Of a DNA stretch of 64,000 nucleotides, positions 1,062 to 52,379 are shown piece by piece. Position 1 is the stretch's first letter. Each line of letters opens with the position of its first letter. This DNA comes from Flavobacteriales bacterium (GTDB lineage Bacteria > Bacteroidota > Bacteroidia > NS11-12g > UBA9320): positions 29,914 through 93,913 of the forward strand of contig JACJZV010000002.1 of the NCBI GenBank assembly GCA_020635395.1, written 5' to 3'. The notes under the pieces are model-generated. The model had not been told where the DNA came from, did no database searches, and saw only the letters and a list, made by a program, of their open reading frames with translations. A program made the translations under genes and the position numbers.

Positions 1062-4000
1062 TTGAGAAATCTATGGTTCATAGTATTGATGGCTTGCAGT
1101 CAAATGATTTTGGCTCAAAACGATTATTACATGACCAATGGAAAAGTCTCTGACTGCAAAGGCAATTTTTTTGACAGCGAAAAAGGAACCATTTCCGGAA
1201 ATTATGATCACAACGAAAACTACATTTTCACTATATGTGTGCCGGGTGCACAGAGCATAACACTCACTTTTTCGGCATTTTGCACCGAAGATTACGAAGA
1301 TTACATGATTATTTTTGACGGTAAAGATACCTTTGCCTCAAAACTGAGTGGCAAAATTAGTGGCAGCAACAACCCAGGTAGTTTTACCAGCAGTGATTCT
1401 TGCTTAACCATTTATTTTCATAGTGATGTGAGTGTGCCGTGCAGCGGTTGGGAGGCCAGTTGGTCAACCAAAGTTATACCCATTTTACCACCCAAATTCA
1501 TTGCCCTATCACCGGTTTCTTGCGATGATAACGTATTAAGAATCAAACTTGACCAAAAATGGAATTGTGATTCGCTTTCGGCAGGCAACTTCACAATTAC
1601 CGGAATTTTGAATCCAAGTATTACCAATTTAACCCCAATAAATTGCGATGCCAACAACGAAACTGATAGTTTTTTACTTTCGTTAAATCCTAAACTTGAC
1701 CGAAGCGGAAGCTACCAAATTGATTTTGATGCAGTAAAATATGACCGATGCGATTCGGCATGGCAACTACATTCCGATACAACTTTCAACATTACCAACT
1801 GCCCCATTTATGTAAATCTAATAGCCGACCCCGATACGGTTTGTCAAGGCACTTGCACCGCAATAACTGCCGAAGTAACCGGGGGTGATTCCACAAAATA
1901 CAATTTTGCATGGTCAACCGGTATAAACGGAACTTTTGGTCCGCACACCTATTGCCCCAGCACAAGCGGTTGGGTATATCTCACGGTTTCCGATGGCAGC
2001 TCCGTGCCAGGTACCGATTCCATTTGGATAGAAGTGGTTAGCCCACCCGTAGCACAGGCCGACACCACTGTTTGCGAATCGGCCTCAGCTTTTTTATTGA
2101 CCGCAAGCCCTGTTGCTGGAAATTGGCTTGGAAAAGGTATTACAAACACCAATTCGGGACGATATGACCCCCAAAAAGCGGGAGCCGGAATAGATACCTG
2201 TGTGTATCAATTTGCGGGCTGCACCGATACCGTTTTGGTAAATATCACGGCATTTGATGCCGGATTTGCCAATGCTTCATGCCCGGGTGCAAGCCCATTT
2301 ATGGTAACAGGCTTCAGTCCGGCGGGAGGTACGTGGAGTGGCCCGAACATTACGTCAAACGGTATTTTTGACCCCGTTGACACGGGAACCTACACCGTAA
2401 CCTATACTTGGAATGGATGTACTGATACTAAAACGATTAATGTTTATCCTGTAAATGTGCAGACGTATGACACTGTTTGTCAATCGCAAGATTCGTTAAA
2501 ATTAAATTTCTCTCCAGTGGGAGGATATTGGAACGGCTTGGGTTTCCTCGATTTTCAGTCGGGATGGTTTTTGCCGCCACGAGCCGGAGGAGGCAATAAA
2601 CGATTGATTTATGATGCCAATGGTTGCAAAGACACCGCTTATGTTTACGTAAAACCCATTAACGCCCGAGGCAATCAAATAGCCTGCCCCGATGCTCCAC
2701 CATTTAATATTACACAAGGCTTGCCCACCGGAGGCTATTGGACAGGCGTTGGTTTGACCGACACCATAAAAGGCACTTATGATGCCTCGTTTATTTACGG
2801 ACTTAATAAAACCTTTTTTAACGATACGCTTTACTACCACATCAATGGTTGCGTGGCTCGAAAAATTGTTTATGTCAGACAAACCGTTGTGCCTTTCGAC
2901 ACACTAAAATTTTGCATAGAGGCTCCAAATCTTTTTCTCGACTTCAACTCCACCAAACGTAGCCCGGGCGGCGGTGTTTGGAGTGGGAATGGTGTTTTTG
3001 GCACGTATTTTTTTGGCCCCGACACAGCCGGAAGGGGGGGTAGCAAAATATATTACGATGCCAACGGATGCCGAGATAGCCTCATCATGTTCGTACACCC
3101 TCAGTCAATAATTCAAAACGACACTTCTATATGCGAAACCGACAATTCGATAACACTATATGCCAAAGAAAAAGGGGGAAGTTGGGCTGGAAAAGGTACA
3201 ACAAAAGCCGGAGTTTTCGACCCTAAAATTGCCAAAACTGGGGTTCATACCATTCGTTATACATCAAAAAATGGCTGTTTAGATTCTAGTAAAATAACCG
3301 TTTTGCCCCGACCTACAGTAAAAATCACAGGATTCAACCCTATTTACTGTTTTAAAGATTCAAACTTTATCATAAAAACCAATGCTGTGGGAGGAGTTTT
3401 TAGTGGCACCACCTTTGGCGATAGCCTGTTTAACCCTCACTTTTCAGGAACCGGAAATCATAAAATTAAATATCAATTTGGCACTGCCACGTGCTATTCG
3501 GCAGATAGTGTGGTAGTAAGGGTATTGGATACATTAAAACACAGTTTCACTTTTGATGACGATTCGCTTTGTTTTGGCGAGATAGCCACTTTAACCGCCG
3601 GAGGTTCAAGAGGTTCTGGCAAACCAATCAACTATACGTGGTCGAATTCTTCATCGACAGACAGAACATTATTTACACGACCAACATCATCTGGTTGGGT
3701 TTCCGTAACCATTTCTGACGGTTGCTCTGACAACGTGCGAGACAGTGTTTTCATTTACGTTTTCCCGAAAATTGAAGTAACTGCCGCCACAAGTGACACC
3801 CAGTGTTTCGGCACCGTTGGTTGGGTAGAAGTAAATCCTATTTTAAGCGATCCCTACAAACTAACTTGGCACACCGCCCCGCCACAAAATACCAATAGAA
3901 TTAACGCTGCCGTGGCTCTAAACTACGCATTTACAGTGCAAAATCTTTATACAAACTGTCGGTTAGACAGCAGCATTTACATCCCCTCCTATCCTCGCAT

Positions 4001-4538
4001 AAAAGCCCATTTCATAACCAGTCCCGCGGCGGGATACTGTCTCAACCCGTTTGACCCCGACTTGCAAATAATCAACTATTCGGTGGGTGCCACCAGTGGC
4101 ATTTGGCATTTTGGCGACAGCACCTCGGCGGCATACAGCACCACCAGCAATTTGAGCCACGTCTATCAGGTTGACACCAACCGATACACCATTTGGCTAT
4201 ACGTGCAAAACAATGGCGGTTGCCGCGATTCGTTTAGTGTCGAAATTTGCGTTGACGACTCTGTGTATTTGGTTATTCCTAACTCCTTTTCGCCCATCAG
4301 TTCTGCCGGAATAAATGATTATTTCAGCGTTAAAACGGCTGGTGTGGTGGAGTTTCAGGTGTCCATTTTTAACCGTTGGGGCGAAAAAATTTATCATTCA
4401 ACCGACCCAAATTTCAGTTGGGATGGCACCTACAAAGGAAAACCCGTGAGCAGCGGTGTGTATGTTTATGAAATAAATTACAAAGGCAAAAAAACCTTTC
4501 ATAAATCGGTGAGTGGTACAATCAATGTGATTCGTTGA
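1062..4538 (+). CDS. large secreted protein with N-terminal CUB-like domain and C-terminal gliding-motility-associated / T9SS type-B sorting domain
   Basis: TTG start overlaps the upstream stop. Signal peptide MRNLWFIVLMACSQMILAQ. C-terminus ...IPNSFSPISSAGINDYF...IFNRWGEKIY...GVYVYEINYKGK is typical of the T9SS type-B CTD. Cys-spaced repeat modules fill the middle. Confidence 0.65.
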   Translation: MRNLWFIVLMACSQMILAQNDYYMTNGKVSDCKGNFFDSEKGTISGNYDHNENYIFTICVPGAQSITLTFSAFCTEDYEDYMIIFDGKDTFASKLSGKISGSNNPGSFTSSDSCLTIYFHSDVSVPCSGWEASWSTKVIPILPPKFIALSPVSCDDNVLRIKLDQKWNCDSLSAGNFTITGILNPSITNLTPINCDANNETDSFLLSLNPKLDRSGSYQIDFDAVKYDRCDSAWQLHSDTTFNITNCPIYVNLIADPDTVCQGTCTAITAEVTGGDSTKYNFAWSTGINGTFGPHTYCPSTSGWVYLTVSDGSSVPGTDSIWIEVVSPPVAQADTTVCESASAFLLTASPVAGNWLGKGITNTNSGRYDPQKAGAGIDTCVYQFAGCTDTVLVNITAFDAGFANASCPGASPFMVTGFSPAGGTWSGPNITSNGIFDPVDTGTYTVTYTWNGCTDTKTINVYPVNVQTYDTVCQSQDSLKLNFSPVGGYWNGLGFLDFQSGWFLPPRAGGGNKRLIYDANGCKDTAYVYVKPINARGNQIACPDAPPFNITQGLPTGGYWTGVGLTDTIKGTYDASFIYGLNKTFFNDTLYYHINGCVARKIVYVRQTVVPFDTLKFCIEAPNLFLDFNSTKRSPGGGVWSGNGVFGTYFFGPDTAGRGGSKIYYDANGCRDSLIMFVHPQSIIQNDTSICETDNSITLYAKEKGGSWAGKGTTKAGVFDPKIAKTGVHTIRYTSKNGCLDSSKITVLPRPTVKITGFNPIYCFKDSNFIIKTNAVGGVFSGTTFGDSLFNPHFSGTGNHKIKYQFGTATCYSADSVVVRVLDTLKHSFTFDDDSLCFGEIATLTAGGSRGSGKPINYTWSNSSSTDRTLFTRPTSSGWVSVTISDGCSDNVRDSVFIYVFPKIEVTAATSDTQCFGTVGWVEVNPILSDPYKLTWHTAPPQNTNRINAAVALNYAFTVQNLYTNCRLDSSIYIPSYPRIKAHFITSPAAGYCLNPFDPDLQIINYSVGATSGIWHFGDSTSAAYSTTSNLSHVYQVDTNRYTIWLYVQNNGGCRDSFSVEICVDDSVYLVIPNSFSPISSAGINDYFSVKTAGVVEFQVSIFNRWGEKIYHSTDPNFSWDGTYKGKPVSSGVYVYEINYKGKKTFHKSVSGTINVIR

Positions 4539-11824: not shown

Positions 11825-14800
11825 TCAAAACAAATATCTAGCCTGCACCCTGCCAATATGAATTATAGGATTGTTGAGACTTCTACGGCCATCGTAGTTA
11901 ATTAAAATTTGAATGCTGTTCGAAAAACGGCGTTCTATCTGCAAGCCCCATTTTAGGTTTTTTCCATTTTTTAATCCGGCCAAAAGTTCGTACGCCACGG
12001 GTGAATTGTCATTGCCCAAATAATTGATGTTGACCAAACCAAAACTGGTCCGCACAATTCCCTGGTTTACCAAATTATACCTTAGTTCGGTAGTGAAGTC
12101 ATGATTATAAGTGGCCTCTCCACCATAACGCCTTTTGTTGTGAGCTTCGAAATATTGATAGTAAATCTCTGCTCTTAGTTTGGCTTGCAGCTGATACCCC
12201 AACTTGGGTTTGAACGCCTGCAAGGTATAATCGAACGCTCGATTGGCTAAAAACTGAGATGTATAGCTTTTAAGCCCTGTTGTGGCCTCCAACGACAGTT
12301 CGTAATTTCTTTTTATGTTGTATCGAATTTTGAGTTTGTTTTCAATCGAATTTCGGCTGTCAACTCCGTTTATCAAAAGAGTTTTGTTTTGGGTGTTAAA
12401 CCATTGATAATCCATACCAAATACCGGGCTGGACTGATTAAATGAAAACACGGAACGAATGGATGAATTGGATGTCAGAAGAGATGTGTCGGCCACATTT
12501 TGCACCAATGGATTAAAAAAATCGCTTCCATTGTTGTCGGTTACTTTTTTCTGCACCTTCAGCGAACTTGTATTGCTGAATCTATTAACCATTTTTAGCC
12601 ATTTTTTATCGGTTTTTCGATAAACTAAAATTGGAGAAACCCGTACGTTTTGATTGAACTCACTACTGTATGATTTTATAAAACCCTGAACAGGCAAAAA
12701 CTGCCGAATAAAATTTGCTCGTCCTGCATCATAGCCCGAGGCCAATTCAAACTCAGTCAAACTTTGCACCCCATTGCTGTCGTAGTCATTCCAAATATAA
12801 TTTCCGTTTCCGTCGCCCACTTCCAAATAGCTATACTCCCGTCGTTGCTCCTGCCCGGTTCCCAACTGATAGTATGCATTTGTAGTAATCAACTTTTTCA
12901 ATAGATTGAACCTTCCCTCCAACCGACCTTGCAGCGTATTTTCCGGTTTTAAATTGCCGGTATCATTCAAAAAGAACAATTGCCGATAGGTGGTATTCAA
13001 ATCAAACTGGGCGTTGTTTCCGGCATTATACCCCAATCCGAAATTCACATCTCTACCTTCCGTATTTTCTTTAAAAGCTCCATCATTTCCAACAAAATCA
13101 ACCCTTCTACCCACATTCAAGTTGTACACCATTTTGCCCGAATCGCCATTAAACAGGCTCATTTTGCTGTGCTCAAACCTAAAACTGGAAGCCAAAATAG
13201 AGTCTGCGTTTAGGGCAAATTTGCTGCTTTCTATCTGATGGCTAAGTTTGGTAGAAACCCATTTACCCCGTTTCAAAACCTCCGCTTGATAGCGTTCAAA
13301 ATCATTTTTTAGTTTAGAACTACCCGAAGGTAAATTGCTTTTTACATTTTCCACAACACCACTAAGCTCAAATTTTGGATATCTGATTAAAGAAGAATAT
13401 TGCTGCGAAAAACCTCCAAATTGATTGCCTCTGTTGTACCAAATTTGGTTTATGTTTAGAAATACTTTTTGGCCTTTACTAATTCCAAAAGAAGCCAAGC
13501 CTATTTTTTCTCCATAAAACTGCTGACCCTCAGTTGGGTTTGTTAGTGTTTTGTTCCACGTTCGGTCAAATTCTACATTTCGGTATCGCTCAATGTATCT
13601 AAAATTTTTGTCGGTTTGCTCAAAAGATACGGTGCTATTAAGTTTCCATGGGATTGCACTGTCTTTTGTAAGCAATTGCTCGCTTTTCCAAAATGTTTTC
13701 AATGCATAACCCAAGTCATTTTCGTGGTCGAGCCGACTAAACGTATTTATTTGATTATTGCTTTGAGCCAACTCCACGCCCAGTTTTGATTTAGAATTCA
13801 GTTGATAATCTGCACCAACCGTGAGCATTTGCAGCCGCTTTGGCGGAATCAAAATTTGAACCGGATCATAGTCTCCAATTGCATTACCAACCCACTCAAA
13901 TACTTTTCCATTGGTGGTAGATATTTTTTGCCGATAGCTACCATTGCCGTTCCCAACATAACTAAAAGTAACACGATACAGGATACCGGTGTCTGCGGGG
14001 TTTGCATAAACGAAAATAGAATCACCCAAACTGTCTTTTCGGATATAAAGTATTTGGTTAAAATTTCGCTCCAATGTCTCTTCAAACCGAGGAATATAAA
14101 CATATTGAGCATCGCCGGCATCGGCAATAAGTTGCCGAACAGATGAGCCATTAATTTCGTAATCCAAATCTTGCTGAAACGGCTGATTTTTGTTGTCTTG
14201 CTCACTAAAATAATTGGTTCTTAGTGAAATTTTGCCCTGCGAATAGTTGCCTCCCAACCTAAAAACAGAGCGGCCATAGTTTCTATCGGAATATTGAAAT
14301 TCGACAATAATCCGACTGTATTGAGTTATTAATTTTCGAGGCATAAAGGTCAACTCGCCTGTGTTGTAATTAACGGTATAATCATTTTGCTCTCCACGTG
14401 TCAATAGTTCGCCATCCAAATACACTTGCTCTGTGCCGCTGATAATGATGATAAATGTTTCGCCGTTAGCACCTTTGAGTCTATAAGGCCCTTGGTTTCC
14501 TTCAATTCCGGCAAAAATATTTCTCGAAAACCGACCACGACTTACAGCTCCTTCTCCGCTTATTTCGTATTGCCCCTTTTTGGTTGTGTCAAAATAATTG
14601 AATTGCAGGCCTCTCGATTTTTTGTTGTATTTCATAAAATACGATGATTTGGGCGTAACCATCGGAAAATCACCGGCAACCAAACCAACACTGTCTTCCA
14701 AAAATTGAAATTGAATAAAAACCCTGTCAAAATCCTGAATTTGTTGGGTGTTTCCTTCGGGCTGTATGGGATTATTATCGTCAGAAATGGCGGCCAATAC

Positions 14801-15307
14801 ATTCACTTTATTTTGCAACTGCCCATTTAGCCGTAGGTTGAGGTTGCTGTTTACCACCACATCCTGCCTATTTCCGAAACCAATGCCACGCGAAATATTG
14901 CCGATGGTTTGAATTTTATCGGTGTTTTGCTCTAAATACTTTTCGTTTTGCGGAACATAGCCAAAGGGGTCATCTTCAAACCAATAACTGATGATATTTG
15001 GATTCTTTTTTTGATAAACTTGATTGAAATTGAATTGCAAAACGCGGTAGCTTATACTCACGGAGTCTTTCGGAAAAGTATCCGACCGCCAAATCAAGGC
15101 AGATTGTAGAGGCAGCACTTCATACCTTTTTTTTTCGACTCCCTCAATCTCAAACGACTCTAAATCAATAGATAACGTGTCAAAAAAAACAGTATCATGG
15201 TTAATAAAAATACGTTTTTGGCGAAGCGATGAATTTTCTTGAGACCAAACACACACTGTTTGGAAAACAAAAATAACCACAAATAGAAACCGCTTAAACG
15301 ACACCAT
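11825..15307 (-). CDS. large (1160 aa) putative outer-membrane protein of unknown function
   Basis: Signal peptide. Beta-strand-rich Asn/Tyr/Gly composition. C-terminal ...ARYLF with a terminal aromatic residue typical of OM beta-barrels. No TonB box. Confidence 0.45.
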   Translation of the reverse strand: MVSFKRFLFVVIFVFQTVCVWSQENSSLRQKRIFINHDTVFFDTLSIDLESFEIEGVEKKRYEVLPLQSALIWRSDTFPKDSVSISYRVLQFNFNQVYQKKNPNIISYWFEDDPFGYVPQNEKYLEQNTDKIQTIGNISRGIGFGNRQDVVVNSNLNLRLNGQLQNKVNVLAAISDDNNPIQPEGNTQQIQDFDRVFIQFQFLEDSVGLVAGDFPMVTPKSSYFMKYNKKSRGLQFNYFDTTKKGQYEISGEGAVSRGRFSRNIFAGIEGNQGPYRLKGANGETFIIIISGTEQVYLDGELLTRGEQNDYTVNYNTGELTFMPRKLITQYSRIIVEFQYSDRNYGRSVFRLGGNYSQGKISLRTNYFSEQDNKNQPFQQDLDYEINGSSVRQLIADAGDAQYVYIPRFEETLERNFNQILYIRKDSLGDSIFVYANPADTGILYRVTFSYVGNGNGSYRQKISTTNGKVFEWVGNAIGDYDPVQILIPPKRLQMLTVGADYQLNSKSKLGVELAQSNNQINTFSRLDHENDLGYALKTFWKSEQLLTKDSAIPWKLNSTVSFEQTDKNFRYIERYRNVEFDRTWNKTLTNPTEGQQFYGEKIGLASFGISKGQKVFLNINQIWYNRGNQFGGFSQQYSSLIRYPKFELSGVVENVKSNLPSGSSKLKNDFERYQAEVLKRGKWVSTKLSHQIESSKFALNADSILASSFRFEHSKMSLFNGDSGKMVYNLNVGRRVDFVGNDGAFKENTEGRDVNFGLGYNAGNNAQFDLNTTYRQLFFLNDTGNLKPENTLQGRLEGRFNLLKKLITTNAYYQLGTGQEQRREYSYLEVGDGNGNYIWNDYDSNGVQSLTEFELASGYDAGRANFIRQFLPVQGFIKSYSSEFNQNVRVSPILVYRKTDKKWLKMVNRFSNTSSLKVQKKVTDNNGSDFFNPLVQNVADTSLLTSNSSIRSVFSFNQSSPVFGMDYQWFNTQNKTLLINGVDSRNSIENKLKIRYNIKRNYELSLEATTGLKSYTSQFLANRAFDYTLQAFKPKLGYQLQAKLRAEIYYQYFEAHNKRRYGGEATYNHDFTTELRYNLVNQGIVRTSFGLVNINYLGNDNSPVAYELLAGLKNGKNLKWGLQIERRFSNSIQILINYDGRRSLNNPIIHIGRVQARYLF

Positions 15308-40175: not shown

Positions 40176-40186
40176 GCGATGTTTAT

Positions 40187-41395: not shown

Positions 41396-41402
41396 GGCAG
41401 CA

Positions 41403-41756
41403 CTATTCGGCAGAATCGTTTTTGAGGTTTTGCAGCAATTGTTCTAATCGTTCTGCCTTGTCAATTGTTTCGTCAATATAAAATTTAAGTTCGGGTGTTT
41501 TTCGGGCATGGTCTTTTAGCTGTTGAGCCAAATAATGTCTTATAGTTGGGGCGTTTTCTTCCAAAATTTTTAAATCGGCTTTTTTGTCTTTAGAATTCAG
41601 AAAACTTAAATACACTTTAGCCAAACCCAAGTCGGGTGTAACCTCCACATCTAAAACCGTAACCATTACATTTTGCAATAATTGTTTGGAGGCAGCGTCA
41701 ATAATAGCACCCAAATCTTTTTGCAACTGTTTGCCAAGCTTGTCTTTTCTACTCAT
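41403..41756 (-). CDS. rbfA: ribosome-binding factor A
   Basis: 117 aa. ...VTVLDVEVTPDLGLAKVYLS... matches the RbfA KH-like core. Confidence 0.8.
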   Translation of the reverse strand: MSRKDKLGKQLQKDLGAIIDAASKQLLQNVMVTVLDVEVTPDLGLAKVYLSFLNSKDKKADLKILEENAPTIRHYLAQQLKDHARKTPELKFYIDETIDKAERLEQLLQNLKNDSAE

Positions 41757-41880
41757 TTTTCCATTGCAAAGCTACAAAAGTTAGATTTTAAAAACGACTG
41801 AATAATGGTGTTGTCAATCTTTGAAACAAGAATTGATAAATAATGACAGTTTTAGTTGCTTGTAAATTCAGGTTTTAATC

Positions 41881-41888
41881 TACATTTG
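41881..41888 (+). promoter_or_regulatory. -7 box TACATTTG, with TTG about 22 nt upstream, for CTD-protein gene A
   Basis: TAnnTTTG match about 59 nt upstream of the ATG at 41947. Embedded in an imperfect inverted repeat CTACATTTGAT...ATCAAAATGTAG. Confidence 0.35.
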
Positions 41889-41946
41889 ATAAATTTCTTG
41901 ACCTAAGCATCAAAATGTAGTTGTGGTGTGTCTTGTGTTTGATAAT

Positions 41947-44900
41947 ATGAATTCTAAAGTGTCATTTCTTTTTAAAAAAATTGGGATATGGATTTTGGTA
42001 GCGATACCATTTTTAGTATGCACACGTGCGGATGCCGACCACATCATTGGGTCTGATTTTACATACAAATGCTCATCAACCAACGATAGTATTTTTGAAG
42101 TTACCTACAATTTCTACCGAGATTGTAACGGTTGCTATGTGTTGGGGCAATCTCCCAAATGTGGCACGTCAGAAAACTGTGCTTCGAGCCAAACAGCCCC
42201 CACCTCACTATCGGTAAAATGTATTTCGGGAGGTTCGTTTTCGGGAACGCTTAACTTGAGCCGAACGGCCATAGTGGATATCACAAAAACGTGCAAAGCA
42301 GTAAAGAGCAGGTGTGCTCAACCATGCAACGGGTCTTTTCCGTATGGTATTGAAAAACATGTTTTTGAAGGAACTTTAGATTTAAGACAGGCCATGAAAG
42401 GTGGTTGCTGCAACTTCGAAATATCGGCATTGCTTTACGTGCGAAGTGCATTGATAACCACCGGGCAGCAACAACAAACATTTTATACAAGTTGCGAGAT
42501 AAATACGTGTAAAGCAAAATGCAACACATCGCCATTACTTACCAATGACCCCGTAGCTATTTTGTGCTGCAATCAACCTTATGTTTTCAATAATGGTGCG
42601 GTTGATAATGCTGACTACGATTCCATTAGCTACAGTTTTGCTCCCGCCTTTAGAGGTCAAAATCAGCAATGTTCTTATGGAGGTAATTTTACCTACGATA
42701 ACCCAATTACAGTATATTATCCTTCAGGCTTAAAATTTCCTTACTCAAACCCTAACTCAAACCCACCAATTGGCATTCGGTTAGATCCATTAACGGGTGA
42801 CTTAATTTTTACCCCAACAAATTGCGGTGAAATAGCCGTGGTGGTTATAGCCATGACAGAATGGAGGAAAGACACAGCCGGTGTATATCAAAAAATTGGT
42901 GTCACGCGGCGTGACATGCAATTTATTGTAATGAGTTGCCCGGACAATAATCCACCAACCATTACGAATACCAAATTTTCGTATCATACCTGCGAAGGTG
43001 AGCAGATTTGTTTTAACGTAACTACAGACGATAAGGTGAAAGTGCCTCCGCCACCTGCCACGCCGCCCGATCCGGATACTGTGCAGTTGACTTGGAATAG
43101 AGGTATTCCGGGTGCTACGTTTACCATAGCAGACCCAAATGCGAGGCTAAAAACGGGTCAATTTTGTTGGACACCACCCATTGGAACCGCCAGCACATTG
43201 CCCTATTCCTTTACCGCAACGGTTAGCGATGACGCATGCCCACTGGCCGCCAGTGCCACCAGAGCTTTTCAGGTTTACGTAGATCCGATTGCCGAAGCCG
43301 AGCGAGATATTGATACGTTTGATTGTGGAAAATATTCTGTTTCGAGCACTCCCTTTGCAAATTTTTTAACTCCTGCCAAGTATGAATGGCAGCTTTTAGA
43401 TTCTACAGGTGTTGTTCTGTTTGATAAAGGGAGAGGTTATTTTAAAAGCTCGAACAACTTTTTGAGTAGCAAACAAAATGATACCATTCAATTTAGAAAA
43501 GGAGGAAAATACATAATAAAACATACCATTCGCAACAAACCCGATTGTCCGAATTTTTATTACGATACGCTTGTAGTCCCACCACTTTTAGAAGTAGATT
43601 TGGCTTTTGGGTCGGACACTTTTGTGTGTGCAGGCACCACTTTACGTATCGAACCAAAGGTTTCAAATGCAAATCCTCCGGTAACTTTTCTTTGGCGTGA
43701 TGGAGCCACCACAAGCTATAAAAATATTAAGTTAGGTAATAATGTAACCGATACAAGTTTTTATGTTGAAATAAAGGATAATTCCGGTTGTACGGCATGG
43801 GACACAACCATAGTTTATTTGCGACCTAACCCAACGGTTTCTTTAGGCGTTGATCGCAGAATTTGCACCTACGACACGATACATCTTGTTCCGCAATTGG
43901 GTTTGGCCTACTGGGATGACCCAAGAGATACATCACAAACTACCATTCAGCAGGGAGACACACTCTACAAAACTTGGTTTTTGGATGGGTTAAAAATTAG
44001 TACAGATAGCCAATTCGTTGCCAACATTGCCGGTAAATATGTCATTCAAATAACGGACAGCCTCGGTTGTATGGGGCAAGACACGATGATACTGCACGTA
44101 AACGACACAGTGAAAGCCGATGCAGGTCAAGATCAGGTATTGTGTTGGAACGATGTCGTCGTAATAGCGGCGGGAGGCTTAGACACGGCGGGCAATGCCA
44201 AAAGTGGTTGGTATGTGTGGAATGATATTACGAATCCGGCCAATGTAAAAGAATTTAGCCGGGACGACACCTTAAAATACAACATCAAAACAACGACCGA
44301 TTACCAGTTGCAGTTGTATGTAATAGAAGATACCACGAGGTGTTATGACGATGATACGGTAAAAATAACGGTCAACCCGCTGCCAACGGTAAAAATGCCA
44401 AACGATATGGCCGTGTGCCGCGATGCGGGGGTAATTACGTTAAACATCTTAGAGGATGCCGCCACTAAAGGTGGAGCATGGTCTGTACCTGCAAAACCCG
44501 GATTGGTTATTAAATCAGGTACTCAATATCAATTTGATACTTGGAATGCCGGAGCCATAAAAGACACCACCAAACGATACAAGGTGTATTATCGCTACAT
44601 TCACCCATCAACCGGGTGTGTACGCACGGACTCATTTGAGATAAAAGTATTCCCCTTGCCTGAGGTAAGCATTCGTGACGGATATTTCTGTCAAGACAAA
44701 GGTTTTGTAAACTTTAGAGACGATGGCACGATAAAATTGCCGTCAAAACTGAAGTTGGATTTGGGTACACAGCAATGGAATTGTTTGGAGTGCGGAGCGT
44801 ATGATTGGTCAAAAATGTTGTACAATGCAGAAACCCGCTTTGGTTTTCCGGCCAATTATGAGATAGACATCAGCGAGAACACCATAGACTTGGGAAGCCG

Positions 44901-46692
44901 TCCGTCGGATTCCATCAAAATAGAATTTGTGTTTAGAAGCATCGATGGATGTTATGGTAGAGACACCGGCAAGATAAAAATAGTAAAAGTACCGAAGATA
45001 GACTTTAGTCCATTCCCTGATTTGTGCTGGGATTTGGGCAAGGTTGACTTAAAAGAACTGAGCAAGGTAGTACCCAATGATGGCACATGGTATGCTATCA
45101 ATGCAACAGGCTTTAAAGATTCGGCGAGCTTCAATCAGGGGTTAAACGGTGGCTTCTTTCAAGGCGATACACTGAACACCTTGCAAACGGCAAAACCGGC
45201 CAAAGATGGCAACTTTAAATATAAGCTACGGTACTTCCACAACCTATCGGGTTGTCCCACATTTAGAGATACCAACATAACGATACAAGGATTGCCTGTA
45301 CCGAAAATAAACACCACACCACTTACAGGCTATGTAAACAATGCACCTTTTGTACAATGCGAGTTGGACGACGACATTGCCTTAACGTCGAACTATCCGG
45401 GTAGTGGTGGCAAATGGAGCAGCAAACAATCGGGAGCAGTATCGGGCAGCACCTTTACGGTGGGAAGTGTAACAACACACAACAAACCGTTTTACATCAA
45501 CTTTGACTATACGAACAGCTTTGGCTGCAAGGGCAAAGACTCGGTGTTGGTAGAGGTGCATGGCAAACAAGAAATCAACCTAAATCCGGACATCGAACTG
45601 TGCAGAACAGGAGATGCCATGACGGTTGATATTGCAGCAAGCACCGTAAACGCATCTGATTTTACGTGGTTTTACTATCAACCTAATGGCAAATTTGCGG
45701 ACGATAAAAATACCACCACCACCTTTACGTTTAGCACCTCGGCAGACTCTACGGAAAAGTTATTGATTATAGCCAACACGGTTGTTCAAAACGGCACAAG
45801 TGCAAATGTTTGTCCCACTGTGGAGGAATATCTAAATATCACCATCCACCCAAAACCGAAGGCGGAAATAGTGGCAGATACATTAAACGGCTGTAATCCG
45901 GTGGATGTAAACTTTGGGGTGAATATGCTGAACAAAGTAGATGCAACGACAAGCAGCTATGCATGGACTTATGCCGATGGCGGCTTGGACAACATCCAGT
46001 CACCCAGCCGTCAGTTTACGGATGATGGAGACAATCAAGTAAGTTTAACCATTACCTCGGAGCATAACTGCGATACTACGTTGACGGTGAACGTGGAAGT
46101 TTACCCCATACCGGTGGCCTTGTTTGTGCCCGACCCGAACAACAGCACCACGGCAGCATTGCCCAAGTTCCAGTTCAACAACCAATCGTCGGTAGCCAAT
46201 GTGTTGAACAGTACAATTACCGAAAACATTTGGGATTTTGGAGACTTATCAAGCATTGATGACACTTCCACCCAAAAAAGTCCCTTGTTTTTCTACCCAG
46301 CCGATACAGGTTCGTATGACGTAACCCTAAAGGTTCGCACCCAATATGGCTGTGAAGATCAGATTACGCTTCCGGTAATTATTGGGCCTGATATTTTGGT
46401 ATTCATACCCAATGCCTTCTCGCCCGATGGTGGTGGGCCAGGTGTCAATGAGTTTTTTAAACCGGTTGTAAATGATGCGATTGATAAATATCATCTGGTT
46501 ATATTTAATAGATGGGGTGAGGCAATATGGGAGACTACCGACAAAACAGAAGGTTGGGACGGTAAATATGGAAGAAAAAAATACTCAAACAGAGAGCCAG
46601 TGAAGGCCGATGTTTACGGATATTATTTGGAGGTAACCAGTTGGAATGGTAACAATTATAAATATACTGGTACAGTGACGTTGTTAAGGTAA
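41947..46692 (+). CDS. giant Cys-rich secreted protein with T9SS type-B (gliding-motility-associated) C-terminal sorting domain, paralog A
   Basis: Signal peptide from the MNSK start. Repeated Cys-containing Ig-like modules. C-terminus IPNAFSPDGGGPGVNEFF...IFNRWGEAIW...TGTVTLLR. Confidence 0.65.
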   Translation: MNSKVSFLFKKIGIWILVAIPFLVCTRADADHIIGSDFTYKCSSTNDSIFEVTYNFYRDCNGCYVLGQSPKCGTSENCASSQTAPTSLSVKCISGGSFSGTLNLSRTAIVDITKTCKAVKSRCAQPCNGSFPYGIEKHVFEGTLDLRQAMKGGCCNFEISALLYVRSALITTGQQQQTFYTSCEINTCKAKCNTSPLLTNDPVAILCCNQPYVFNNGAVDNADYDSISYSFAPAFRGQNQQCSYGGNFTYDNPITVYYPSGLKFPYSNPNSNPPIGIRLDPLTGDLIFTPTNCGEIAVVVIAMTEWRKDTAGVYQKIGVTRRDMQFIVMSCPDNNPPTITNTKFSYHTCEGEQICFNVTTDDKVKVPPPPATPPDPDTVQLTWNRGIPGATFTIADPNARLKTGQFCWTPPIGTASTLPYSFTATVSDDACPLAASATRAFQVYVDPIAEAERDIDTFDCGKYSVSSTPFANFLTPAKYEWQLLDSTGVVLFDKGRGYFKSSNNFLSSKQNDTIQFRKGGKYIIKHTIRNKPDCPNFYYDTLVVPPLLEVDLAFGSDTFVCAGTTLRIEPKVSNANPPVTFLWRDGATTSYKNIKLGNNVTDTSFYVEIKDNSGCTAWDTTIVYLRPNPTVSLGVDRRICTYDTIHLVPQLGLAYWDDPRDTSQTTIQQGDTLYKTWFLDGLKISTDSQFVANIAGKYVIQITDSLGCMGQDTMILHVNDTVKADAGQDQVLCWNDVVVIAAGGLDTAGNAKSGWYVWNDITNPANVKEFSRDDTLKYNIKTTTDYQLQLYVIEDTTRCYDDDTVKITVNPLPTVKMPNDMAVCRDAGVITLNILEDAATKGGAWSVPAKPGLVIKSGTQYQFDTWNAGAIKDTTKRYKVYYRYIHPSTGCVRTDSFEIKVFPLPEVSIRDGYFCQDKGFVNFRDDGTIKLPSKLKLDLGTQQWNCLECGAYDWSKMLYNAETRFGFPANYEIDISENTIDLGSRPSDSIKIEFVFRSIDGCYGRDTGKIKIVKVPKIDFSPFPDLCWDLGKVDLKELSKVVPNDGTWYAINATGFKDSASFNQGLNGGFFQGDTLNTLQTAKPAKDGNFKYKLRYFHNLSGCPTFRDTNITIQGLPVPKINTTPLTGYVNNAPFVQCELDDDIALTSNYPGSGGKWSSKQSGAVSGSTFTVGSVTTHNKPFYINFDYTNSFGCKGKDSVLVEVHGKQEINLNPDIELCRTGDAMTVDIAASTVNASDFTWFYYQPNGKFADDKNTTTTFTFSTSADSTEKLLIIANTVVQNGTSANVCPTVEEYLNITIHPKPKAEIVADTLNGCNPVDVNFGVNMLNKVDATTSSYAWTYADGGLDNIQSPSRQFTDDGDNQVSLTITSEHNCDTTLTVNVEVYPIPVALFVPDPNNSTTAALPKFQFNNQSSVANVLNSTITENIWDFGDLSSIDDTSTQKSPLFFYPADTGSYDVTLKVRTQYGCEDQITLPVIIGPDILVFIPNAFSPDGGGPGVNEFFKPVVNDAIDKYHLVIFNRWGEAIWETTDKTEGWDGKYGRKKYSNREPVKADVYGYYLEVTSWNGNNYKYTGTVTLLR

Positions 46693-46711
46693 CAATATCT
46701 ATCGTTTCTTA

Positions 46712-46750
46712 AAGCCCGATGAAAAATCATCGGGCTTTTTTGTTTTTTTT
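46712..46750 (+). terminator. rho-independent terminator after paralog A
   Basis: AGCCCGATGA-aaaa-TCATCGGGCT followed by T11. Confidence 0.7.
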
Positions 46751-46809
46751 ATTTTGTCGTGCAGCGAATTGAGGTGCTAAAGAGTTTGTATAGAACAAAT
46801 GACAACAGT

Positions 46810-49800
46810 ATGAAACAATTTTACCAATTCGCAAAAAACAATTTAAAAAGACTTGGCCTTTGGCTTATCGCTGTCATGATGATAAGTATGGTTTCAAATG
46901 CATCTCACATGATGGGTGCTGATATTACCTACAAATGCATTGACACACTAAAGTTTGAAATTTTTGTAAAATACTATCGTCAATGTGCGGGAATATCTCT
47001 TTCTAACCCAAGCAGTGAAACAAAGGTAATATGCACCACAACTGGTTCTGCTCAAGGTGTTTCATTGTCATTGGTCGGTATTCGGGATGTTACCCCTGTT
47101 TGTGCCAAGGCTGGTAATCCGTGTAAACCAACAAACACAAAGGCGAGCGATGGAATAGAGGAACACTTTTACAAGGCTACCATTGATTTCAATCAAGCCC
47201 CTTACAGTAATTTAATAAAAAACGGTTGTTGCATTATCCGATTTGAAACTGGCCAGTCGGCGAGAAATGGTGATATCACAACTGGAGCAGCAGGATACTA
47301 TTTTTACACCTATGCAACTGTAAATTTGTGCAAAGCCCCATGCAACAGTTCCCCCGCCCTTACTACGGAGCCAGTTGCTTATTTATGTTGCAATCAGCCA
47401 TTTTTCTACAACAACGGAGCATCAGATACAGCCAACTTTGATTCCATTTCATACTCATTTGGTCATCCTTTAAAGGGGTACAATCAAATAATTTCTTACA
47501 GCGGAAATTATTCCAACACTAAACCTTTTGACGTGTATTTGCCTGGAGGGTTACCTTCAACATATTGTAATTGTAATGCAAATCCTCCAATTGGACTTTG
47601 TCTTGACCCTCTGACGGGTGACATTTGCTGTACTCCTACCAATTGTAACGATCGAACTGTGGTTGTGTTGGAGATGACGGAATGGAAGAAAAATCCATCA
47701 ACAGGAAAGATGGAAGTAATTGGGGTCACTCGGCGTGACATGCAATTTATTATTAAACAATGCCCTGATAATAACCCTCCCGTCATAAAGGGAGATTTTA
47801 AAAGAGAGATCTGTGAGGGTGAACAAATTTGTTATACCATTACCACAGAAGATGCAGTAAAGAAGCCACCACCACCAGCCACACCGCCCGATCCGGATAC
47901 GGTAACGATAAGTTGGAACCGAGGTATTCCAGGGGCGAGTTTTACGGTAATCAACCCAACGGCTATCAACCAATCGGGTAGATTTTGTTGGACTCCACCT
48001 ATTGGCTCGGCCAGTACCATACCTTATACTTATACGGTTACGGCTCGTGACAATGCTTGCCCGTTGAATGCCGTAACGGTAAGGGCGTTTCAAATCATTG
48101 TTCATCCCATAGCCGAAGCCGACCGAATAATAACGAAATTGGATTGTGGAAGGTACGCCATTGAAAGCGAACCTTTCCCGAACTTTAGAAATCCTGCCAA
48201 ATATACCTGGCAGCTAAAGGATACGAATGGTGTGGTGTTGTTTGACCGAAAATATGGATACTTTGAGAGCAGCAAAAACTTTTTGAGCAGTAAACAAAAG
48301 GATACGATTTTGTTCAGAAAAGGTGGAACGTATATTTTGCAACATACCATAAACAATCTGCCCGACTGTCCGAATGATTATTATGATACGATAGTTGTTC
48401 CGCCATTGTTGGAGGTTGATATAGCATTAGGACCTGACACTTTTGTGTGTGCAGGCACCACCTTGAGGCTTCAACCTCAAACCGCCAACGGATATCCACC
48501 GATTACATATAAATGGGGAACGGGCGACACGACCGATTACATTGATGTAGAAGTTCCGAATTGGACGAGCGACACCTCTTTTTACGTACAAATAAAAGAT
48601 GGCAACAACTGTACAGCATGGGATAGCACCATTGTTTATTTACGCGAAAACCCATTGGTATTTATCGGGCCTGATAGACGAATATGTACGTACGATACCA
48701 TCCACTTGGTGCCAAATGATAGTTTGGCCTATTGGGATGACCCGAGGGATACCTCAGAGATACGCATCCGACAAGGCGACACACTTTATAAAGAATGGTA
48801 TCTGGATGGAGTGAAGATAAGCACCGACAGTATGCTGGTGGCCAATGTAAAAGGAGAGTATGTTATTCGGGTGGTAGATAGTTTGGGCTGTTTTTGGCAA
48901 GACACCATGATACTGCATGTAAACGACACAGTAAAAGCCGATGCAGGTCAAAATCAGGTATTGTGCTGGAATGATGTCGTCGTAATAGCGGCGGGAGGCT
49001 TAGACACGGCGGGCAATGCCAAGAGTGGTTGGTATGTGTGGAATGACATTACAAATCCGGCCAATGTAAAAGAGTTTAGCAGAGACGACACCTTAAAATA
49101 CAACATCAAAACTACCACTGACTACCAGTTGCAGTTGTATGTAATAGAAGATACCACGAGGTGTTATGATGATGATACGGTAAAAATAACGGTCAACCCA
49201 CTGCCGACAGTAAAAATGCCAAACGATATGGCCGTGTGCCGCGATGCAGGGGTAATAAACATGATTGGCGACCCAACGGGAGGAGCGTGGTCAGTTCCTT
49301 CAAAACCAAGTTTAATGAAAGTTTCCAACGGTGTTTATACGTTTGACCCATGGAACGGAGGAGCCATAAAAGATACCACCAAGCGATATGAGGTGTATTA
49401 TCGTTATGTACATCCTTCCACCGGATGTGTACGCACCGACTCGTTTGAGATAAAAGTATTCCCATTGCCGGAAGTAAGCATTCGTGACGGATATTTCTGT
49501 CAAGACAAAGGTTTTGTAAACTTTAGAGACGATGGCACGATAAAATTACCATCAAAACTGAAGTTGGATTTGGGTACACAACAATGGAATTGTTTGGAGT
49601 GCGGAGCGTATGATTGGTCAAAAATGTTGTACAATGCAGAAACCCGCTTTGGTTTCCCGGCCAATTATGAGATAGACATTAGCGAGAACACCATAGACTT
49701 GGGAAGCCGTCCGTCGGATTCCATCAAAATAGAATTTGTGTTTAGAAGCATTGATGGATGCTATGGCAGAGACACCGGCAAGATAAAAATAGTAAAAGTA

Positions 49801-51516
49801 CCGAAGATAGACTTTAGTCCATTCCCTGATTTGTGCTGGGATTTGGGCAAGGTTGACTTAAAAGAACTGAGCAAGGTAGTACCCAATGATGGCACATGGT
49901 ATGCTATCAATGCAACGGGCTTTAAAGATTCGGCGAGCTTCAATCAAGGGTTAAACGGTGGTTTCTTTCAAGGCGATACACTGAACACCCTGCAAACGGC
50001 AAAACCGGCCAAAGATGGTAACTTTAAATATAAGCTACGGTACTTCCACAACCTATCGGGTTGTCCCACATTTAGAGATACCAACATAACGATACAAGGA
50101 TTGCCTGTACCGAAAATAAACACCACACCACTTACAGGCTATGTAAACAATGCACCTTTTGTACAATGCGAGTTGGATGCAGACATTGCCTTAACGTCGA
50201 ACTATCCAGGTAGTGGTGGCAAATGGAGCAGCAAACAATCGGGAGCAGTATCGGGCAGCACCTTTACGGTGGGAAGTGTAACAACACACAACAAACCGTT
50301 TTACATCAACTTTGACTATACGAACAGCTTTGGCTGCAAGGGCAAAGACTCGGTGTTGGTAGAGGTGCATGGCAAACAAGAAATCAACCTAAATCCGGAC
50401 ATCGAACTGTGCAGAACAGGAGATGCCATGATGGTTGATGTAGCAGCAAGTGTGGTAAATGCGTCTGATTTTACATGGTGGGATTACGGAAAGAAAGGCA
50501 CATTTGCGGATGCAAAAGACACCACTACCACCTTTACGTTTAGTACCTCGGCGGACTCTACGGAGCGAATATTGATAGTGGCAAGTACAGAAGTTATAGT
50601 TGGAACAAGCAATAATGTATGTCCGTATAAAGAAGAAACATTCTTTATCACCATCCACCCAAAACCGAAGGCGGAAATAGTGGCAGATACATTAAACGGC
50701 TGTAATCCGGTGGATGTAAACTTTGGGGTGAATATGCTGAACAAAGTAGATGCAACGACAAGCAGCTATGCATGGACTTATGCCGATGGCGGCTTGGACA
50801 ACATCCAGTCACCCAGCCATCAGTTTACGGATGATGGAGACAATCAAGTAAGTTTAACCATTACCTCGGAGCATAACTGCGATACTACGTTGACGGTGAA
50901 CGTGGAAGTTTACCCCATACCGGTGGCCTTGTTTGTTCCCGACCCCAACAACAGCACCACGGCAGCATTGCCCAAGTTCCAGTTCAACAACCAATCGTCG
51001 GTAGCCAATGTGTTGAACAGTACAATTACCGAAAACATTTGGGATTTTGGAGACTTATCAAGCATTGATGACACTTCCACCCAAAAAAGTCCCTTGTTTT
51101 TCTACCCAGCCGATACAGGTTCGTATGACGTAACCCTAACGGTTCGCACCCAATATGGCTGCGAAGATCAGATAACACTTCCGGTAATTATTGGGCCTGA
51201 TATTTTGGTGTATATACCCAATGCCTTCTCGCCCGATGGTGGTGGGCCATTGCGAAACGATGGATTTAGGGCTCATGTAAACGATGGAGCAAAGCTTTAT
51301 CACTTGATAATATTTAATCGCTGGGGCGAAAAAATATGGGAGACCACCGATAAAACCCTCGATTGGGATGGCACCTACGGCCTGCCACCAAAAGAGGGCG
51401 GCAAAGATGGCTTGCACCAACCCGTTCCGATGGGAGTATATAGCTACCAGCTCGACATTGTAAGTTGGAGCGGCGAAAAGTTCCGATACACAGGAACCGT
51501 TACGCTGATTAGGTAA
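46810..51516 (+). CDS. giant T9SS type-B CTD protein, paralog B
   Basis: Start at MKQFYQF (the ORF track used 46759). N-terminal 700 aa about 45-50% identical to A. Residues 720-1480 or so are near-identical to A at nucleotide level. Distinct CTD variant ...NDGFRAHVNDGAKLYHLIIFNRWGEKIW...TGTVTLIR. Confidence 0.65.
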   Translation: MKQFYQFAKNNLKRLGLWLIAVMMISMVSNASHMMGADITYKCIDTLKFEIFVKYYRQCAGISLSNPSSETKVICTTTGSAQGVSLSLVGIRDVTPVCAKAGNPCKPTNTKASDGIEEHFYKATIDFNQAPYSNLIKNGCCIIRFETGQSARNGDITTGAAGYYFYTYATVNLCKAPCNSSPALTTEPVAYLCCNQPFFYNNGASDTANFDSISYSFGHPLKGYNQIISYSGNYSNTKPFDVYLPGGLPSTYCNCNANPPIGLCLDPLTGDICCTPTNCNDRTVVVLEMTEWKKNPSTGKMEVIGVTRRDMQFIIKQCPDNNPPVIKGDFKREICEGEQICYTITTEDAVKKPPPPATPPDPDTVTISWNRGIPGASFTVINPTAINQSGRFCWTPPIGSASTIPYTYTVTARDNACPLNAVTVRAFQIIVHPIAEADRIITKLDCGRYAIESEPFPNFRNPAKYTWQLKDTNGVVLFDRKYGYFESSKNFLSSKQKDTILFRKGGTYILQHTINNLPDCPNDYYDTIVVPPLLEVDIALGPDTFVCAGTTLRLQPQTANGYPPITYKWGTGDTTDYIDVEVPNWTSDTSFYVQIKDGNNCTAWDSTIVYLRENPLVFIGPDRRICTYDTIHLVPNDSLAYWDDPRDTSEIRIRQGDTLYKEWYLDGVKISTDSMLVANVKGEYVIRVVDSLGCFWQDTMILHVNDTVKADAGQNQVLCWNDVVVIAAGGLDTAGNAKSGWYVWNDITNPANVKEFSRDDTLKYNIKTTTDYQLQLYVIEDTTRCYDDDTVKITVNPLPTVKMPNDMAVCRDAGVINMIGDPTGGAWSVPSKPSLMKVSNGVYTFDPWNGGAIKDTTKRYEVYYRYVHPSTGCVRTDSFEIKVFPLPEVSIRDGYFCQDKGFVNFRDDGTIKLPSKLKLDLGTQQWNCLECGAYDWSKMLYNAETRFGFPANYEIDISENTIDLGSRPSDSIKIEFVFRSIDGCYGRDTGKIKIVKVPKIDFSPFPDLCWDLGKVDLKELSKVVPNDGTWYAINATGFKDSASFNQGLNGGFFQGDTLNTLQTAKPAKDGNFKYKLRYFHNLSGCPTFRDTNITIQGLPVPKINTTPLTGYVNNAPFVQCELDADIALTSNYPGSGGKWSSKQSGAVSGSTFTVGSVTTHNKPFYINFDYTNSFGCKGKDSVLVEVHGKQEINLNPDIELCRTGDAMMVDVAASVVNASDFTWWDYGKKGTFADAKDTTTTFTFSTSADSTERILIVASTEVIVGTSNNVCPYKEETFFITIHPKPKAEIVADTLNGCNPVDVNFGVNMLNKVDATTSSYAWTYADGGLDNIQSPSHQFTDDGDNQVSLTITSEHNCDTTLTVNVEVYPIPVALFVPDPNNSTTAALPKFQFNNQSSVANVLNSTITENIWDFGDLSSIDDTSTQKSPLFFYPADTGSYDVTLTVRTQYGCEDQITLPVIIGPDILVYIPNAFSPDGGGPLRNDGFRAHVNDGAKLYHLIIFNRWGEKIWETTDKTLDWDGTYGLPPKEGGKDGLHQPVPMGVYSYQLDIVSWSGEKFRYTGTVTLIR

Positions 51517-51543
51517 GGAGAATTACAAAAATACTAGCCGTTA

Positions 51544-51590
51544 AAACGAGGAGACCCGCCAATTGGCGGGTCTCCTCGTTTATTTTAATA
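51544..51590. terminator. bidirectional hairpin terminator between paralog B and pyrH
   Basis: AAACGAGGAGACCCGCC-aatt-GGCGGGTCTCCTCGTTT, a 17-bp perfect stem flanked by A/T runs on both sides. Confidence 0.75.
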
Positions 51591-51595
51591 AGATT

Positions 51596-52309
51596 TTAGC
51601 TTACTAACGTACCCACCATATTGCCCTCAACAATATTGAGTAGGTTGTTCTCTTTGTTCATGTCGAAAACAACGATAGGTAATTTGTTTTCTTGACAAAG
51701 CGTAAAAGCCGTCATGTCCATTACCTTTAGTTGGCGTTGAATGACTTCTGTAAAACTAATATTGTCGAACCTAACGGCAGTGGTGTCCTTTTCAGGGTCG
51801 GCGGTATAGATGCCATCCACACGGGTACCTTTTAAAAGCACATCGGCTTCAATTTCTACCGAACGCAACGATGCAGCTGTATCTGTGGTGAAATATGGGT
51901 TTCCGGTTCCGGCTCCAAAAATTACGACCCGTCCTTTTTCAAGATGCCGAATGGCTCTTCGACGAATAAACGGCTCGGCTACTTGTTCCATTTTAATGGC
52001 ACTTAACAATCGGGTATAAATACCTATTTTTTCTAATGCACCCTGCAATGCCATGGCGTTAATTACAGTGGCCAGCATGCCCATGTAGTCGGCTTGAGCA
52101 CGGTCTTCCATACCGCCCTCTACACCCTGAACACCTCGAAAAATATTGCCACCACCAATTACAATAGCCACTTCCACCCCTTTGTCAACCACTTTTTTTA
52201 TTTCTGCGGCATATTGCCCCAAAACGTTTGGATCGATACCATACTCATGAGAACCCAACAAGGCTTCTCCGCTCAACTTAAGAAGTATTCGTTTATATTT
52301 CATTATCAA
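51596..52309 (-). CDS. pyrH: UMP kinase
   Basis: [33 protein letters not shown] motifs. Confidence 0.9.
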
Positions 52310-52379
52310 AGTTTTTCAAAAAAAAGCAAAAAAAAGGGAGAAACTATGTTTCTCCCTATATTAAAATATTTCTAATTTC

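Follow-up and report, generated by a model that had tools for sequence, protein, structure and literature searches.

The tandem genes A and B

The window analysed here is a stretch of 64,000 nucleotides (positions 29,914 to 93,913 of contig JACJZV010000002.1, assembly GCA_020635395.1) from the metagenome-assembled genome (MAG) of a Flavobacteriales bacterium. It holds two giant genes in tandem, here called A and B, whose predicted products are paralogous surface proteins of a type IX secretion system (T9SS) with a C-terminal domain (CTD) of type B. Together with a third paralog, C, they are the subject of this study. In each protein, N1 denotes the head and N2 the segment after it; A-type and B-type refer to the two kinds of head found in the family, as described below.

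The open reading frame (ORF) listing gives two ORFs on the same (+) strand, at 41923..46692 and 46759..51516. The likely ATG starts lie at 41947 for A and 46810 for B, each followed by a signal-peptide-like hydrophobic segment; the N-termini concerned (MNSKVSFLFKKIGIWILVAIPFLVCTRADA in A and MKQFYQFAKNNLKRLGLWLIAVMMISMVSNA in B) were read by eye from the translation rather than by a predictor. At the C-terminus, the Pfam profile CHU_C matches both proteins (43.9 bits for A and 40.4 bits for B, against a cut-off of 27), and the NCBIfam profile TIGR04131 scores 29.2 and 22.3 bits, respectively, under its cut-off of 35. PKD_4 also matches both, and two PKD-type domains are located near aa 1300-1470 of each. 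Judged by the CHU_C domain and the signal peptide, A and B are predicted to be full-length T9SS type B CTD cargo. No PorP_SprF match was found among the 20 window ORFs tested, the genes flanking A and B being housekeeping genes, and no match to the SprB-repeat Pfam was found. Each gene is followed by a terminator-like hairpin with a T-run (Table 1), the one after A suggesting that the two genes form separate units of transcription.

Table 1. Features of the tandem genes. Positions refer to the window and, for segments shared by the two genes, to A; the counterpart in B is given in its own column.
Feature	Position	Counterpart in B	Strand	Remarks
Gene A (MCB9262028.1, P0002)	41947..46692		+	1581 aa; predicted A-type giant T9SS type B CTD protein
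A head N1	42034..42978		+	aa 30-344; all-beta (model), Cys-rich, paralog-specific
A N2	42979..44075	47800-48896	+	66% aa identity to B; dS saturated
Homogenised block 1	44076..44435	48897-49256	+	94% nt; mismatch 0.058; dS 0.33; dN 0.004
Divergent patch 1	44436..44630	49257-49439	+	68% nt; mismatch 0.317; two 6-nt indels; dS ~2.5
Homogenised block 2	44631..45622	49440-50431	+	97.9% nt; mismatch 0.021; dS 0.10
Divergent patch 2	45623..45838	50432-50647	+	68% nt; mismatch 0.319; no indel; dS ~1.4
Homogenised block 3	45839..46440	50648-51249	+	98.3% nt; mismatch 0.017; dS 0.054; holds two PKD domains
Distal type B CTD, a-form in A, b-form in B	46441..46692	51250-51516	+	A/B 52% aa; mismatch 0.446; dS saturated
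Terminator-like hairpin and T-run 3' of A	46713..46750		+	GCCCGATG...CATCGGGC TTTTTTGTTTTTTTT, read from the sequence
Gene B (MCB9262029.1, P0001)	46810..51516		+	1568 aa; predicted B-type paralog between A and pyrH
B head N1	46903..47799		+	45% to A, 80% to paralog C, ~67% to B-type orthologs
Terminator-like hairpin and T-run 3' of B	51543..51585		+	CGAGGAGACCCGCC...GGCGGGTCTCCTCG TTTATTTT, read from the sequence

A mosaic of identity between A and B

A codon alignment of the two genes, from which all mismatch fractions were taken, is divided by sharp breakpoints. Over the 5' 2.1 kb, A and B share 55-65% of their nucleotides (mismatch 0.40). At A 44076 / B 48897 identity jumps to 94-98% and remains there for 2.4 kb, with two islands of ~68% inside, and the near-identical region stops 250 nt short of the stop codon. 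An initial annotation of this DNA had described a mosaic of tandem paralogs, and identity is indeed far from uniform; the breakpoints that it placed prove correct to a few bases, and the divergent last 250 nt, with different CTD forms in the two genes, is found as described. Its estimate of ~85% identity for the patches was too high. The indels that it reported in the patches are present in the first and missing from the second, and its 2.4-kb near-identical block holds as such, but is heterogeneous in age, as the dS of the three sub-blocks indicates (Table 1). The longest identical run between A and B measures 223 nt; in 2000 shuffles of the mismatch positions, the maximum was 50.

Synonymous divergence (dS) amounts to 0.05-0.33 in the three blocks; elsewhere (N1, N2, the two patches, and the tip of the CTD), it has reached saturation. 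Because constraint on the protein cannot remove synonymous differences, and block dS is nevertheless low, the identity of the blocks does not come from protein constraint. The three values of 0.33, 0.10, and 0.054 imply at least two or three copying events of different age. The ratio of nonsynonymous to synonymous divergence (dN/dS) is 0.01-0.1 in the blocks and 0.1-0.2 in the patches, and both genes are under purifying selection.

Discrete variable patches in an otherwise near-identical scaffold would also fit a targeted hypermutation of two domains, by a mechanism like that of a diversity-generating retroelement (DGR) or by strong positive selection, after one recent duplication of the 3' 2.4 kb. 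However, the patch differences, counted by base (A/C/G/T), number 20/14/11/13 in the patch listed first and 23/21/7/18 in the second, and thus fall on all four bases; patch 1 contains indels; patch dS reaches 1.4-2.5 at a dN/dS of 0.1-0.2; and paralog C carries the patches of A. With no reverse transcriptase among the annotated neighbours, hypermutation of this kind is exceedingly improbable. A DGR proper, which the initial annotation had already dismissed, is ruled out by the unbiased substitution spectrum, the indels, and the same lack of a reverse transcriptase among annotated neighbour genes.

A third paralog and a second strain

Paralog C (MCB9261520.1) is full length and lies on another contig of the same MAG. 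It belongs to the 90% cluster of B, which also includes fragments from a second MAG. The three paralogs were compared segment by segment at the protein level, as percent amino-acid identity. For the pairs A-B, A-C, and B-C, in this order, identity is 45, 48, and 80% in N1; 66, 67, and 99% in N2; 98-100, 99-100, and 99-100% in the blocks; 66, 95, and 71% in patch 1; 68, 100, and 68% in patch 2; and 52, 53, and 99% in the CTD. C is thus itself a mosaic, with a B-like front and a B-like CTD, yet with the A version of both patches: it matches the A form at 62 of 65 residues in patch 1 and at 72 of 72 in patch 2. A single duplication followed by divergence cannot produce this reticulate pattern.

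The initial annotation had suggested a comparison among strains for patch shuffling. Of 910 aligned residues, 14 differ between C and its ortholog in the second MAG, and almost only within patch 2: 11 of the differences are located at aa 1271-1297, where eight are the residue of the B form and three match neither the A nor the B form. The other three differences are artefactual, caused by the start and by a tail with a frameshift. At the protein level, this is direct evidence for the transfer of a short tract between paralogs since the two strains parted. In other collections, exact-protein look-ups with A, B, and C gave no match, nor did metagenome scans with exact anchors flanking patch 2 or with a degenerate back-translation of the peptide just 3' of it; a scan of genome contigs yielded no same-species genome, the best match being 62-68% identical.

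The three residues that match neither form point to further alleles in the population, and allelic exchange has been described for surface proteins of Porphyromonas gingivalis (PMC5266723). Both observations would suit an import of the patches from other strains or species, by allelic exchange through horizontal transfer and homologous recombination, into an otherwise recently duplicated stalk. Such an import is nevertheless unlikely. One genome holds both forms of both patches and C has the form of A, so that an internal donor suffices. Moreover, the A and B patch forms are much closer to each other (66-68% aa) than to those of ~30 close homologues (26-46%), and none of the collections searched yielded a donor from outside.

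Heads and stalks across the family

A total of 120 homologues were aligned, and 118 of them could be typed as A or B; the head was taken as aa 30-352 and the C-terminal part as aa 710-1498. Over the first ~330 aa, the 118 typed homologues fall into two ancient types; beyond that, there is no type signal left in the protein. When an A-type protein is compared with a B-type one, head identity nearly always lies at ~40-60%, whereas C-terminal identity reaches 73-100% in particular A/B pairs. The nearest neighbour of an A-type protein is also A-type in 30 of 32 cases for the head and in nine of 32 for the C-terminal half; the latter figure is close to the proportion of A-types in the set. In the closest clades, same-type and cross-type identities are about equal from block 1 on (for instance 68, 67, and 64% in block 2). 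The C-terminal halves of A and B of the window are 94% identical to each other and 47-57% identical to those of homologues of either type (all below 60%). The A head, for its part, is ~82% identical to A-type orthologs vs 45-48% to the B head.

The 5' limit of homogenisation differs by pair, from aa ~330 to ~720, and the head is never entered. The positions of the two patches in the window are not recurrently divergent in other A/B pairs; the idea that the patches are conserved paralog-specific domains was rejected, since other A/B pairs are homogenised over the same positions.

A similar mosaic is seen in another species. P0032, which lies at the A locus beside pyrH, and P0016, which lies at a locus with an extracytoplasmic function (ECF) sigma factor gene, are 96-100% identical at the nucleotide level over ~2.75 kb, with a further near-identical island upstream, a divergent island at aa 508-627, and a diverged C-terminal tip. 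Their contigs come from different samples of one project, in Joint Genome Institute (JGI) assemblies independent of the window MAG.

A second pair, from two metagenomes, has another arrangement. P0095 (A head, L029:1758-6545) and P0088 (B head, L030:68-4537) are collinear, with 92.3% nucleotide identity over a stretch that starts right behind the head (~aa 315) and extends across a ~1250-aa CHU_C gene and RelA; in L029 the upstream flank of the A locus (TilS) is joined to the downstream flank of the B locus. This could be explained by replacement of the head, by deletion of sequence between two tandem copies, or by a contig that is chimeric; each of the three readings would involve recombination via the shared stalk. 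The view that all high-identity A/B pairs are paralogs of one genome is weakened by the fact that P0095 and P0088 share one locus.

Two other observations concern the ends of these genes. P0041 and P0110 have a precomputed match to Por_Secre_tail (a type A CTD) and no recorded CHU_C match, which suggests that the sorting domain itself may be exchangeable within the family. Among 19 A-type loci from genome contigs, nine (L008, L011, and L013-L019) end at a contig edge inside the gene, at aa 424-1134; such breaks would be expected if near-identical paralog segments break short-read assemblies.

The near-identity or the tandem arrangement could also be an artefact of assembly or polishing, arising from collapsed repeats, from a chimeric join, or from short reads polished across paralogs. 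In its favour, roughly half of the related A-type loci are truncated by a contig end within the gene, and L029 is possibly a chimeric join through the shared stalk. However, nearly all of the differences that remain in the blocks are synonymous (dN/dS 0.01-0.1), unlike errors or polishing noise, and unique sequence makes up both the A-to-B junction and the B head. The chimeric structure of C recurs in an independent MAG, and a similar mosaic is present in the independent JGI assemblies. Finally, a change from 65% to 98% identity is beyond what polishing can do. As an explanation of the mosaic, an artefact is therefore very improbable.

B as a derived insertion at the A locus

In the window, rbfA, a gene for an FtsX-family permease, and pth lie upstream of the A-B pair, and pyrH, tsf, and then ribosomal-protein-like genes lie downstream. 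Both flanks match those of a single A-type gene in other Bacteroidota MAGs, where pth, the FtsX-family gene, and rbfA are found upstream and pyrH-tsf-rpsB-rpsI-rplM downstream. The A ortholog is single-copy at this locus in seven related MAGs, and no second giant ORF was found in seven A-type loci over the 7-10 kb downstream that were examined. B-type genes are found elsewhere, in the order Ldh_2, ECF sigma factor, two ~500-aa proteins, B-type gene, a CHU_C protein of 1250-1290 aa, and RelA/SpoT. Because the A locus is single-copy elsewhere and B-type genes sit in the ECF-sigma locus, the tandem arrangement is derived, B having been inserted between A and pyrH.

The B head stands at 60-67% identity to B-type orthologs, vs 64-75% for the C head against the same proteins (first 380 aa), and is thus the more diverged of the two. 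Its Cys pattern is also altered: GQCCRN has become GQSARN, and new Cys residues occur in STYCNCN and ICCTP. This suggests that the B head may have evolved faster once B sat beside A.

At the B-type loci, a type B CTD protein of ~1250-1290 aa is regularly encoded 3' of the B-type gene (L021:14701-18510, L026:14816-18691, L029:6634-10383, and L030:4615-8379). The ECF sigma factor and two uncharacterised ~500-aa proteins are found 5' of it in L021, L023, and L026, one of the ~500-aa proteins in L023 having a Por_Secre_tail match. The sigma factor, the ~500-aa proteins, and the CHU_C protein may form a regulatory or secretion module for the adhesin locus.

Elsewhere in the window, a further type B CTD protein of 1158 aa, with CUB and CHU_C matches, is encoded at 1062..4538 (+), and an ORF of 1160 aa with no Pfam match at 11825..15307 (-). 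ORFs of the same size adjoin the ribosomal-protein cluster in L024 (with CUB and CHU_C) and in L001 (without annotation), from which it follows that the window locus has been rearranged.

No reverse transcriptase, recombinase, or PorP/SprF gene is present among the annotated neighbour genes, and no inverted repeats of at least 40 nt were found in 40000-53000. A shufflon or invertible segment is contradicted on the latter ground and by the lack of a recombinase among the neighbours.

The initial annotation had also raised "cassette-like" variation, which might be antigenic or adhesive. One rival reading is a dedicated system of the cassette type, in which the divergent stalk domains and CTD forms would be variable cassettes, traded among copies at high frequency so as to alter the cell surface. 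The patches do occur in two forms that are assorted differently among the three paralogs, the two strains differ almost solely inside patch 2, and the patches are the least conserved stalk segments across the family. Several findings oppose this proposal. Every copy seen is full-length, with signal peptide, CTD, and its own terminator. Saturated dS in the patches indicates that the A and B forms are old and not recently diversified, and the patch positions, as noted, do not recur as divergent sites in other A/B pairs. No recombinase, reverse transcriptase, or inverted repeat was found nearby, and the net effect observed is homogenisation, which dominates. A dedicated system of this type is thus improbable, and a silent-cassette system in the strict sense was rejected: A and B are complete ORFs with their own terminators, C is full length, and no truncated or silent donor cassettes were found.

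Predicted structure of head and stalk

The AlphaFold2 model of the A head (predicted local distance difference test score, pLDDT, 87.8; predicted template modelling score, pTM, 0.82) is of high confidence and all-beta. A Foldseek search with it against the PDB gave no match at E<1e-3 and only generic immunoglobulin (Ig)- or cadherin-like partial matches (E >= 7e-3, template modelling score <= 0.22), and no function follows from the fold. The heads are presumed to be ligand-binding adhesin modules.

The model of aa 700-1581 of A (pLDDT 86, with the low pTM that beads on a string would give) is a chain of beta-sandwich domains, whose limits were set from secondary structure and from recurring V-x-P-x-P linkers. 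Each patch falls within one predicted beta-sandwich domain, patch 1 at ~aa 814-902 and patch 2 at ~aa 1207-1301, and the break in identity at 46440 lies ~15 residues into the CTD. According to the model, the unconverted islands would be the cores of single predicted domains, edged by conserved strands and linkers.

Probable recurrent gene conversion among paralogs

We consider that recurrent RecA-type gene conversion among at least three paralogs best explains the pattern of A, B, and C, with a probability of roughly 0.85. Sharp breakpoints, homogenised synonymous sites, the three-way mosaic, and a strain difference confined to patch 2 all support the recombination or gene conversion that the initial annotation had proposed. 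The paralogs, which are presumably expressed, would encode cell-surface proteins of ~1,580 aa secreted by the T9SS, built from a signal peptide, an all-beta Cys-rich head N1 of ~330 aa, a long stalk of Ig-like and PKD beta-sandwiches, and a type B CTD. A sits at the conserved locus rbfA...A...pyrH-tsf-rpsB, with B as a derived extra B-type copy directly 3' of it and C on another contig. Ordinary homologous recombination, in the form of non-reciprocal gene conversion and presumably RecA-dependent, would have overwritten stalk segments repeatedly, so that the stalks of one genome evolve in concert and the heads remain distinct.

Conversion tracts would have halted at two stalk domains and at the distal CTD, which were left as old diverged islands. 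It is plausible that these fast-evolving domain cores became too diverged for heteroduplex extension while their flanks kept homogenising; selection to keep the copies different is an alternative cause that would fit as well. Since the islands exist in two forms, and A, B, and C as well as the two strains combine these differently, the same process would now and then swap single Ig-like domains between copies. As for the CTD, the distinct forms might match different PorP/SprF-like shuttle or anchor proteins.

An extension of this hypothesis can be envisaged, in which the stalk is a combinatorial surface-variation module: Ig-like domains (D2 and D6) and CTD forms would exist as alternative alleles, and recombination involving at least three expressed paralogs would reassort them and occasionally exchange whole heads from locus to locus. 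Populations of free-living Flavobacteriales would thereby show ever-changing surfaces, for instance to evade phages or grazers, with ligand specificity retained by the conserved heads. We regard it as doubtful.

Several points weigh against recurrent gene conversion or restrict its reach. The pair from run ERR2094171 shows no recent tract. Co-residence of the paralogs in one genome is proven only for the window MAG and likely for both the JXR19 MAG and run ERR2094171. The three-way and strain comparisons rest on the protein sequences, not the DNA, of C and of the second strain. P0095 and P0088 represent the same locus in two ~92%-identical genomes with different heads, and part of the family signal may accordingly be due to head replacement or chimeric assembly and not to conversion of the stalk. 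Conversion in either direction, and more events than the minimum, would fit the pattern. Lastly, short-read polishing could exaggerate identity inside repeats.

Implications

Gene conversion in adhesin families is already well known; here it is found in little-studied environmental bacteria, and a programmed variation function is not shown. More generally, the genes show giant type B CTD surface proteins of environmental Bacteroidota evolving as head-plus-stalk modules. The head is ancient, specific to its paralog, and highly conserved, A-type heads of close genomes sharing 80-96% identity. The stalk changes fast between species, whereas recombination keeps the stalks of one genome similar.

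Short-read assemblies are broken or mis-joined by such genes. Orthology calls and trees made from the whole gene are unreliable, paralog identity being held only in the first ~330 aa. Direct repeats of 2.4 kb set 4.8 kb apart are also predicted to give rise to frequent deletion and fusion variants in populations. The genes offer a tractable case for asking why stalks are homogenised while heads and CTD tips are protected, and whether domain reassortment alters adhesion or susceptibility to phages. They are chiefly of value as a clear case of a conserved head borne on a stalk that evolves in concert, and as a warning for the assembly and orthology of giant T9SS cargo.

Comparison with known systems

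Silent-cassette systems, such as pilE/pilS of Neisseria, vlsE of Borrelia, and msp2 of Anaplasma, combine one expression site with many promoterless partial cassettes and switch at high frequency. Like A, B, and C, they rely on segmental, non-reciprocal gene conversion of variable segments between conserved flanks in a surface-protein gene. In A, B, and C, by contrast, all copies are complete genes, and each segment exists in just two or three forms.

In Flavobacterium johnsoniae, cognate PorP/SprF shuttles recognise type B CTDs, in which a targeting signal is also contained; a PorP/SprF-like shuttle gene often lies beside the type B cargo, and orphans exist (PMC12618676). The SprB-type adhesins of this species resemble A and B in being giant repetitive surface proteins with a CHU_C/type B CTD (PMC12618676; PMC9143113). 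Their CTD holds both secretion and targeting information, which by analogy offers a possible rationale for the two CTD forms in A and B. Unlike the SprB type, A and B have no PorP/SprF-like gene among the window genes tested and no SprB-repeat Pfam match. To our knowledge, no gene conversion between paralogs has been described for proteins of the SprB type.

The rgpA, kgp, and hagA genes of P. gingivalis encode T9SS cargo with near-identical adhesin domains shared between paralogs, and their repeats break short-read assemblies (PMC5266723). As with A, B, and C, these are T9SS surface proteins of Bacteroidota whose C-terminal adhesin domains are identical or nearly so between paralogs and have been reassorted between genes and strains. 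The P. gingivalis proteins, however, have type A CTDs, protease heads, and cleaved-adhesin/DUF2436 exchange units, whereas A, B, and C have a type B CTD, non-enzymatic-looking beta heads, and Ig-like/PKD stalk exchange units; there is no sequence relationship between the two groups.

Gene conversion and chimeras have also been found among the outer-membrane adhesin genes babA, babB, and babC of Helicobacter pylori (PMC4552749, which cites Pride and Blaser, 2002, for concerted evolution between duplicated elements in this species). The bab genes share with A, B, and C their separate loci, distinct N-terminal parts that define function, C-terminal parts homogenised within the genome, and strain-specific chimeras. 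Concerted evolution of the bab 3' segments was reportedly described by Pride and Blaser. The Bab proteins, however, are autotransporter-like outer-membrane proteins of ~700 aa from a host-restricted pathogen, with phase variation via CT repeats, whereas A, B, and C, in which no slipped-strand repeats were seen, are predicted T9SS type B CTD cargo of ~1,580 aa with multi-domain stalks, encoded in environmental Flavobacteriales MAGs by genes of which two lie in tandem.

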